NCBI GenBank assembly: GCA_964632315.1 | Contig: CAZWEM010000041.1 | Location: 2,714 to 44,905, forward strand | Length of the DNA stretch: 42,192 nucleotides | From: an uncultured archaeon | GTDB taxonomy: Archaea; Asgardarchaeota; Lokiarchaeia; Sigyniarchaeales; SOKP01 | Direction of reading: 5' to 3' | Part shown: positions 20,997 through 23,807 of the stretch, piece after piece | Numbering within the stretch: position 1 is the first letter of the stretch | Layout: the number at the start of each line of letters is the position of its first letter | Position numbers and translations under genes: made by a program | The notes under the pieces: model-generated | Told to the model about the DNA's origin: nothing | Database searches by the model: none | What the model saw: only the letters and a program-made list of their open reading frames with translations

Positions 20997-23807
20997 TTAT
21001 TTAATAATTATTGTTGGTCTTCCCGGTAGAGATTTAAGAGCCTTTGGATCTTTTGAATCGATTTCTTTTAATACATTTACATTAGCATCGTATTTTGTCT
21101 CTAACATGCTAGAGATTTCATTAAAAAATAAGAATTCTTCACTTGCTTTGATTGGAGAGGGCTGAAATTTACCTAGATTTTTAAGTACGGAGGACACAAT
21201 TTGATTTATAAGTTTACCATGTTTTTTAAAATGCTCTTTTTTCATAAGAACCTTTAATATTTCACCTTGATCCTTGGATTGTTTAACTTGTTGGAGCAGC
21301 TCTTCGAAAAGATTAAATTTCCAATCATTAGCTATGATTATATCGATCTTGTCGATTTTTTCTTTTTTAATTATATGAATTATGTGGTTTATCGATTCCA
21401 ATGTATCATTCATTAGTTTCCATTTATATTCATTAACGGGATTTAAAATACCATTATCATATTCTGGCCAAGAAGATACACTTAAAAAATCTTCATTGCC
21501 AAACAAGTTCCAAATTTCTTCAGTTACGTGTGGAATAAATGGATGTAATAGTTTAACAAGTCTTTGAGAACAGTAAGAATAGACACTTTTATTAACTTTT
21601 TCAAGTTTATATTTATTAAATTCATTTGTAAATTGGATTAAATCATTAATGGCATCCCTTATATCAATTTGTTCCATATGCTTTGTCACATTCTTAATAG
21701 TTTTGTTTAGAAGATATTTGATCAAAGTATCATGAATAACTTCATTATTTCTAATAGAATCTGGTTTCTCAATCAAAAGTGCAAAACTATTCCGAATAAA
21801 TTTATGCGCAAATTGAATACCTTCATTTGACCATTCTAACCCCGATTTTGGACTAGCCCCAAATAGAATGAAAAATCTAGCTGCATCAGCACCAAATTTA
21901 TTCATTATTCCAATCGGATCTACTGTATTTCCTAAACTTTTGCTCATTTTAACACTTTTGAATATGTATTTTGTTCCACATCTTTTACAATTTTCATCAT
22001 TCATCTCGGATTTCATTGCAAATACTTCGCAATTAGGACAATACGGATGTATTTTATTAATCATTCCTTGGGTAAGTAATCTTTGAAATGGCTCACTGTT
22101 TGAATGTAATCCTAAATCTCTTGCAACTTTGGTAAAAAATCTTGCGTATAGCAAATGAAGAATAGCATGTTCAATGCCTCCAATATAGAGATCAACATTC
22201 ATCCAATAATCTACTCTTTTCTTGGAATATGGAAGATTTGATGATTTAGGATCACAATATCTATAGAAATACCATGAACTATCAACAAATGTATCCATTG
22301 TATCTGTTTCTCTTATTGCTTTTTTATTGCATTTAGGGCACTTTACATTAAGAAAAGATTCACTAGTCAATAATGGATTTCCTTTACCAGTGAATTGAAC
22401 ATCTTTTGGTAGCTTTATTGGGAGCTGATCGATGGGAGCGGGAATAACACCACAATCCTCGCAATATATAATTGGAATAGGACATCCCCAGTATCTCTGC
22501 CTTGAAATTAACCAATCTCTTAACTTATAATTAACAGTCGCATACCCACTGTTTAATTCTTCAAGTTTTTTAGTGATTGCATTTATCGCGCTTTTGTTAT
22601 CAATACCATCGAATTCTCCAGAATTGACTAAAATTCCCTCTCCCTCAAACGCACGTGACATCTTTTTGGAATCTAATTCATAATCATAAGGTTGGATTAC
22701 GACTCTTATTGGAATATCATATTTTTTGGCAAATTCAAAATCTCGTTGGTCATGTCCTGGAACGGCCATTACTGCTCCGGCACCATATTCATATACAACA
22801 AAATTCCCAACATAAATAGGGATTTGTTGCTTTGTCATTGGATTTAATGCTTTTTTCCCGATAAGCATCCCTTTCTTTTTCACCTCTATATCTGTGCGTT
22901 CAAACTTATCCTGCTGCATAACCTCTTTATAAAATTTTTTGTATTTTTCCTCATAATCTGTTTTTTCCACCCATTCTTTTATCCATGGGTGCTCAGGGGC
23001 AAAAACCATAAATGTTACTCCATATAAAGTATCAGGTCTAGTAGTAAAAATATCAATCGTTCGTTCTTCTCCAACAATTTGAAATTTAATGATAGTCCCT
23101 TGTGATCTCCCAATCCAATTCCGTTGCATAGTTTTTACTTTTTCTGGCCAATCTAACTGATCTAAACCCTCTAATAATTCTTCCGCGTAATCTCTTATTT
23201 TTAAAAACCATTGCGTCAGGAATTTTTGTTCTACATTGCTGTTGCATCTCCAACATTTTCCATTTAAGACTTGCTCATTAGCTAAAACTGTAGAGCAATT
23301 GGGACACCAATTTACATAAGATTCTTGTCTATAAGCTAAACCCTTCTCAAACATCTTAATAAAGAACCATTGGTCCCATTTATAGTAGTTAGGATCGTGA
23401 CTAAATATAGTCCGAGTCCAATCGTAAGACAAACCAATTCTTTTTTGTTGCTTTTTCATTAACTCGATATTTGAATTTGTCCATTCCTCGGGATTAGCGC
23501 CGTGATCAATCGCCGCATTCTCAGCAGGGAGTCCAAAACTTTTATGGTATTTCACTTATTGAGAAATACTATCATAGCCCATAGGGTACAATACATTGAA
23601 CCCCTGCATTCGTTTGAATCGAGCTACAGAATCTCCTATTGTATAATTACGGAGATGTCCCATATGAAGGCTTCCAGAGGGATAAGGGTACATTTCTAAT
23701 ACGTAATATTTATTTTTGTTTTTATCTTGTTTTACTTCAAAAATTTTCTCGCTGTCCCATTTGTCTTGCCATTTTTTTTCTATCTTTCCAAAATTATAAT
23801 CTTCCAC
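20997..23807 (-). CDS. leuS: Leucyl-tRNA synthetase, interrupted by a 30-nt putative BHB intron (exon 1 23807-23571, exon 2 23540-20997; 926 aa spliced)
   Basis: GTG start at 23807, [12 protein letters not shown] (HIGH), PMGYDS|[10 protein letters not shown] joined across the insert, FTTRPDT and [15 protein letters not shown] editing domain, [16 protein letters not shown]. Confidence 0.95.
23541..23570 (-). other. Putative bulge-helix-bulge mRNA intron in leuS, 30 nt, containing an in-frame TAA
   Basis: GGGC TATG AT^A GTATTTC TCAATAAGT GAAATAC CATA AA^A GTTT: 4-bp central helix, two 3-nt bulges, 7-bp inner stem. Confidence 0.85.

Follow-up and report, generated by a model that had tools for sequence, protein, structure and literature searches.

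A probable tRNA-type intron within the leucyl-tRNA synthetase coding sequence of an Asgard archaeon

The leucyl-tRNA synthetase gene (leuS) on the minus strand of the window, a stretch of 42,192 nucleotides from an uncultured archaeon, is interrupted in a conserved motif. After M-G-Y-D the reading frame enters 30 nt (23570–23541) containing an in-frame TAA, and it resumes with S-F-G-L-P-A-E. How can such a gene specify an enzyme? The first-pass annotation had proposed an mRNA intron of the tRNA type, a bulge–helix–bulge (BHB) structure cut by the splicing endonuclease EndA and sealed by RtcB. We examined this proposal by comparison of alleles, structure prediction, phylogeny and selection analysis.

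The insert and its predicted structure

Excision of positions 23541–23570 yields a single leuS frame of 926 codons. The features of the locus are the following.

23571–23807, minus strand: leuS exon 1, 79 codons, with a predicted GTG start, the HIGH-type motif HMGH and its end at G-Y-D
23541–23570, minus strand: putative BHB intron, 30 nt, phase 0, with an in-frame TAA in its loop
20997–23540, minus strand: leuS exon 2, from S-F-G-L-P-A-E on, with a bacterial-type editing domain, KMSKS and an archaeal-type C-terminal domain
23577–23580, minus strand: outer helix, 5' strand, in exon 1
23573–23576, minus strand: central 4-bp helix, exon strand, consisting of the Tyr codon TAT plus G; invariant in intron-bearing alleles
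23570–23572, minus strand: 5' bulge, predicted cut 23571/23570
23547–23569, minus strand: intron hairpin with a 7-bp stem and a 9-nt loop (23554–23562)
23543–23546, minus strand: central helix, intron strand; invariant across all alleles
23540–23542, minus strand: 3' bulge, predicted cut 23541/23540
23536–23539, minus strand: outer helix, 3' strand, in exon 2; requires an AGY Ser codon plus TTY

The GTG start of exon 1 was assigned from the N-termini of relatives and an upstream GGTGG element. Gene callers predict two ORFs at the intron-bearing leuS, and the two exons stand as separate proteins in public collections, the split-gene annotation that had been foreseen. When the read-through protein is compared with LeuRS of Thermus thermophilus (1h3n), exactly 10 residues are added after the Asp of the G-W/Y-D motif, which is residue 80 of 1h3n. 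We take Asp80 to be the residue that binds the amino group of leucine; a literature search on its role found no paper.

The insert is present in two independent sequencing runs. Run X2 crosses it with no differences, and run X19, which is approximately 91% identical and gap-free, has a single difference within the insert, at one loop base. Neither run contained an insert-free joint, which answers the concern of misassembly raised in the first-pass annotation.

Rereading of the sequence agreed with the insert, coordinates and BHB geometry first described. There are four Watson–Crick pairs in the central helix and two 3-nt bulges on opposite strands, flanked by an inner stem of 7 bp, with a pair probability of 0.99, and by an outer helix of 4 bp that is weak in the genome studied here (G000). 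The TAA stop (23556–23558) lies inside the 9-nt hairpin loop. Cuts after the second nucleotide of each bulge, following the rule that BHB bulges are cut between nucleotides 2 and 3 (PMC2738675), restore G-Y-D-S-F-G-L-P, in agreement with the G-Y-D-S-F first claimed, and the 926-codon frame. Every feature by which a BHB intron is recognized at the sequence level is found in the leuS insert. The weakness of the outer helix, an early caveat, is partly local to G000; other alleles have G-C at one position where G000 has G-U.

A 30-nt BHB of equal quality (four Watson–Crick central pairs, 7/7 inner pairs and at least four outer pairs) occurs at 3 of 8,878,192 genome positions, a frequency of 3.4e-7. 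In G000 the insert is bordered by a 3-nt direct repeat, AGT...AGT, and the chance of a match is about 1.4e-6 once the four registers of this repeat are allowed. Folding was less distinctive: the full BHB lies 2 kcal/mol above the ViennaRNA minimum with a central-helix pair probability of about 0.1, the 65-nt fold of the leuS insert gave z = 0, and loose BHB shapes turn up across the genome about as often (830) as in a mirror-geometry control (816). Since the central helix is not what ViennaRNA prefers and chance alone yields many loose BHB shapes, folding energy is not the evidence. The case rests on the agreement of the predicted BHB cut sites with the boundaries defined by homology.

Alleles of the genus and the history of the insert

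The insert was found in G000, G023, G006, G057, G016, G056, G050, G005, G009 (two copies) and the metagenome lineages L299–L302 and L303, giving 12 distinct intron alleles from nine species genomes and two metagenome lineages; 29 alleles of the genus are without it. The relatives that bear it are labelled Promethearchaeota, in line with the Asgard host suspected at the outset. All species genomes were scanned by pattern for inserts of 12–42 nt, and outside the genus none was found at the same site; the other matches were chance or intronless leuS.

All 15 BHB pairs are kept in each of the 11 ungapped alleles. Stem changes among these are confined to G-C/G-U or A-U/G-U wobbles, and the remaining changes are in the loop and bulges. 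The alignment of leuS had been proposed as a check for patchy occurrence and for compensatory stem changes. Presence and absence are indeed patchy, but no two-sided compensatory change was found in the main 15 pairs among the ungapped alleles compared; the one case, C-G to U-A, is in a loop-extension pair of L303, which has a new loop. Covariation therefore supports the predicted BHB, but weakly when taken alone, since the main helices show no true compensation.

The content of the insert is variable. Some alleles have TAA as the stop codon, some TGA and some no stop, and in G056 the insert is 29 nt long and shifts the frame. Only three alleles have GTG as the codon after the stop; the rest have GGG or GAG there. 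The first insert codon is TGT in most alleles, with AGC as the landing codon, and AGT in others, and the AGT direct repeat is missing from most alleles. A single predicted BHB cut resolves the TAA, TGA, stop-free and 29-nt alleles alike.

The exons differ between the two classes of alleles. Tyr TAT together with Gly GGY is present in 8/8 intron alleles and 5/28 intronless alleles (Fisher p 4e-5, the related alleles not being independent). All intron alleles have AGY-TTY after the junction. This is found in no intronless allele of the genus, those having TCN-TTY or AGY-TAY. Synonymous sites of the exons are constrained as the predicted BHB requires, and this is more telling than the covariation. 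The intronless alleles with S-Y (AGY-TAY) are those of G044, G014, G015, G042, G002, G017, G049, G051, G008, G021, G011, G048, G024 and G005b. They adjoin intron alleles in three clades, and replacement of F by Y would disrupt the last pair of the outer helix.

In the LeuRS tree, intron-bearing copies fall into four separate supported clades. A topology uniting the intron alleles in one local clade was acceptable at first (p-AU 0.29) and was rejected when more taxa were included (p-AU 0.03); a simple homing sweep is therefore not claimed. A single intron clade was also rejected on the middle part of leuS and with an independent marker of the EF-2 family. The 5' part of leuS has a grouping unlike that of the remainder, and between L303 and G006 dS is 4.1 for exon 1 as against 0.8 for exon 2. 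With its clade split, the deviant grouping of its 5' part and discordant exon distances, leuS is a recombination mosaic in which the putative intron requires at least four changes. Mixing within metagenome-assembled genomes adds noise to this history, two copies being present in G005 and in G009. Precise loss via cDNA is unsupported, as the AGY-TTY junction it should leave is found in no intronless allele of the genus. No homing endonuclease ORF was found in the intron: all alleles are 29–30 nt long, and 80 metagenome loci contained no long form.

That some alleles are stop-free and the distribution is patchy suggests a tolerated intron. Most likely it is a near-neutral passenger, one of several in this genome, which would be kept only where the exon supplies half of the motif and would move or vanish as the 5' part of leuS recombines between lineages. 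A regulatory role is conceivable.

Probable splicing and its alternatives

The genome encodes two EndA paralogues, on contigs C28 and C8, one with the catalytic Tyr/His/Lys pattern, and also RtcB, on C26. We consider it highly probable that the insert is a tRNA-type (BHB) mRNA intron spliced by EndA and RtcB, a reading that agreed with every comparative test we ran. The pre-mRNA would fold into the hairpin, and a two-subunit EndA would dock on the BHB and cut each bulge behind its second base. The exons would be ligated by RtcB, which would probably circularize the intron as well. The spliced mRNA would encode a chimeric LeuRS of 926 amino acids; an unspliced message would halt at codon 84, giving a stub of 84 residues and no enzyme. 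For cleavage, ligation and expression we draw on the precedent of cbf5 (PMC2738675). Only without the 30 nt can leuS be read as a conserved gene. A near-identical spliced product was not found in the protein collection searched. The closest intact proteins (80–82%) come from contigs with several genes; they are genuine intronless alleles and have a TCT codon. In a close relative, L299–L302, three small uncharacterized ORFs (120, 160 and 82 amino acids) lie between a radical-SAM gene and leuS.

Translational recoding, that is readthrough of the stop or ribosome hopping between two AGT codons in the style of T4 gene 60, might also bring the ribosome past the insert. G000 alone would invite this reading, with its in-frame insert, AGT...AGT borders and a stop placed in a hairpin loop. 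Across the alleles it fails: most begin with TGT and land on AGC, so that the matched take-off and landing codons of gene 60 type bypassing are not conserved, the stop varies or is absent, and the G056 form shifts the frame. Readthrough would set 10 residues beside the conserved Asp, and extra residues at this position occur in only 1 of about 195 homologous proteins, which is the stop-free intron allele L303. We regard recoding as very unlikely.

The insert might instead have killed a redundant gene. The intron-bearing gene encodes a bacterial-type LeuRS (TIGR00396; 979 bits read through, and 856 for exon 2 alone against a cut-off of 548) with HIGH, KMSKS and the bacterial position of the editing domain. 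It is chimeric, a bacterial-type core being joined to an archaeal-type C-terminal domain. An intact archaeal-type LeuRS is encoded elsewhere in the genome (G000:C37:1435-4299, L057; TIGR00395, 930 bits, above cut-off), on a contig whose GC content matches the genome. In this second enzyme HIGH and the editing motif are present, and KMSKS is replaced by KMGKS, a variant found genus-wide and kept in ten relatives. The interrupted gene had been called essential; it is not the only LeuRS of the cell, and that part of the first claim was not upheld. The second LeuRS could in principle compensate for poor splicing.

If the gene were a pseudogene, the archaeal-type enzyme would do the work, and the stop of the insert does fall in the catalytic core. 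The exons, however, show constraint. For G000 and L299, the intron-bearing relative closest to it, dN/dS is 0.049 and 0.050 for the two exons. The range is 0.02–0.10 for intron pairs and 0.03–0.18 for intronless pairs, and the values of about 0.05 between two intron-bearing copies span a dS near 1.8. These substitution patterns show strong purifying selection on exon 1 and exon 2 alike. The first-pass annotation had named a second intact LeuRS with relaxed selection on this copy as evidence against splicing: the second enzyme exists, but relaxed selection is absent. Full-length intron-bearing copies have no further lesions except a second BHB insert, and the structure of the insert is conserved in 12 alleles. 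Bacterial-type LeuRS exceeds the cut-off in 36/42 genomes of the genus and archaeal-type in 28/42, with co-occurrence of the types, so retention of the bacterial type is no less frequent. In G009 (85% complete) and G050 (88% complete) the only copies found were intron-bearing and of the bacterial type, with no archaeal-type LeuRS. The pseudogene is largely refuted by the selection data and is, in our estimate, slightly less probable still than recoding.

A split enzyme, in which an 84-residue N-terminal piece pairs with a C-terminal piece restarted at GTG, is suggested by the GTG directly after the TAA and by the two predicted ORFs. The restart codon is conserved in just the three alleles mentioned, the break would be inside the active-site motif of the Rossmann fold, and such an enzyme could not account for the stop-free and frameshifted alleles, leaving a minimal probability. 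Equally negligible is an assembly artefact or a removal from the DNA itself, by reversible excision or phase variation, since the 3-nt repeat flanking the insert in G000, the one point in favour, is lacking in most alleles, both sequencing runs contain the insert with no joint, and the different junction codons show that intronless alleles are not excision products.

Other inserts, related systems and significance

The putative BHB splicing reading gains company from further inserts. A second 30-nt BHB intron is predicted at leuS codon ~133 of relatives (L082, L093, L303, L312 and L313). It lies approximately 53 codons downstream of the first site and is unrelated to it; its cut restores Y-Y-K-W-D-Q, and its stems show wobble and compensating changes. 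Some alleles have introns at both sites, some at neither and others at just one of the two, site 1 or site 2, and the sites thus assort separately. In G000 the HRG-bearing EF-2 (L231) contains a 30-nt BHB insert with an in-frame TAA just before E-Q-E-R-G-I-T (G000:C25:29359-29388, minus strand), and a conserved motif is restored when it is removed. It is common to G015, G046 and G016 and is missing from 18 other sequences of the genus examined. BHB-shaped inserts in acs (L292; G000:C25:135-164, 434-461 and 788-819) and gyrB (L294; G000:C6:101550-101582) restore conserved motifs on removal; further stops remain in gyrB.

With strict settings, an ab initio census of the genome yielded leuS and EF-2 and otherwise noise. 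Neither the gap intron nor an insert in the EF-2 P-loop of G016 came out as a BHB in the strict scan, and no convincing strict BHB was found among the ARAGORN tRNA intron calls. Relaxed motifs or multiple introns are probably the reason for the misses.

Several observations were made in passing. The EF-2 of G016 (L274) has a second, frame-shifting insert of approximately 31 nt in its P-loop codons (H-I-D-H-G-K-T), which is hairpin-like. ARAGORN found only 30 tRNAs; it called a tRNA-Sec at G000:C35:2538-2630, and most other calls bear introns. Contigs C74, C80, C90, C98, C103, C106, C112 and C113 have a high GC content in a genome of 33% GC and are probably bin contamination, which is reported as 8.6%. 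C113 contains a second gyrB fragment.

As of 2020, archaeal mRNA splicing within coding sequence rested on cbf5 alone (PMC7714728). The literature searched to late 2026, with few subscription journals covered, contained no Asgard mRNA case; the introns it described were those of cbf5 and of one 5' UTR in Haloferax. The cbf5 intron of Desulfurococcales and Sulfolobales was proven by cDNA and in vitro (PMC2738675). The putative leuS intron resembles it in being a short BHB intron of a coding sequence in the region of a catalytic Asp codon (PMC2738675), in the cuts between bulge nucleotides 2 and 3, in gain and loss between lineages and in a host with a hetero-oligomeric EndA. It differs in that it belongs to Promethearchaeota and to another gene, has a strict instead of a relaxed BHB and is known here from sequence. 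Several such introns per genome, two sites in leuS and a patchy, recombination-linked distribution are likewise unlike cbf5. The intron of HVO_1309 in Haloferax volcanii is also short (46 nt) and an mRNA substrate of the tRNA splicing endonuclease; unlike that of leuS, it is in an untranslated region and breaks no reading frame (PMC7714728).

Most Asgard genomes have two EndA paralogues and a two-subunit EndA, and short BHB introns of tRNA genes were repeatedly gained in the same phylum-level group (bioRxiv 10.64898/2026.10.13.758758). That preprint treats tRNA genes only, with no occurrence of 'mRNA' or 'cbf5', and does not show splicing in Asgard cells. As to the enzyme, NmLeuRS1/2 of Natrialba magadii are chimeric LeuRSs with a bacterial-type N-terminal core and an archaeal-type C-terminal tRNA-binding domain, also two per cell (PMC4005665). 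G000 differs from this in that its other LeuRS is of archaeal type throughout and the chimeric gene carries putative introns.

The mechanism is already known from cbf5; leuS would be the case of an Asgard aminoacyl-tRNA synthetase, with candidate siblings in EF-2, acs and gyrB. We lean towards the view that endonuclease-dependent mRNA splicing is routine in this genus, with BHB introns of about 30 nt in many core genes, fast turnover and travel on recombining segments. The splitting or truncation of such genes by gene callers biases the gene inventories of Asgard archaea. The leuS BHB supplies a 52-nt substrate, positions 23531–23582 of the minus strand, for an EndA assay. If the view is true, the output of translation enzymes is possibly coupled to EndA/RtcB capacity, and the closest prokaryotic relatives of eukaryotes would have an intron–exon gene structure independent of the spliceosome. 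Whether the archaeal ancestors of eukaryotes already had introns in protein genes becomes a testable question.
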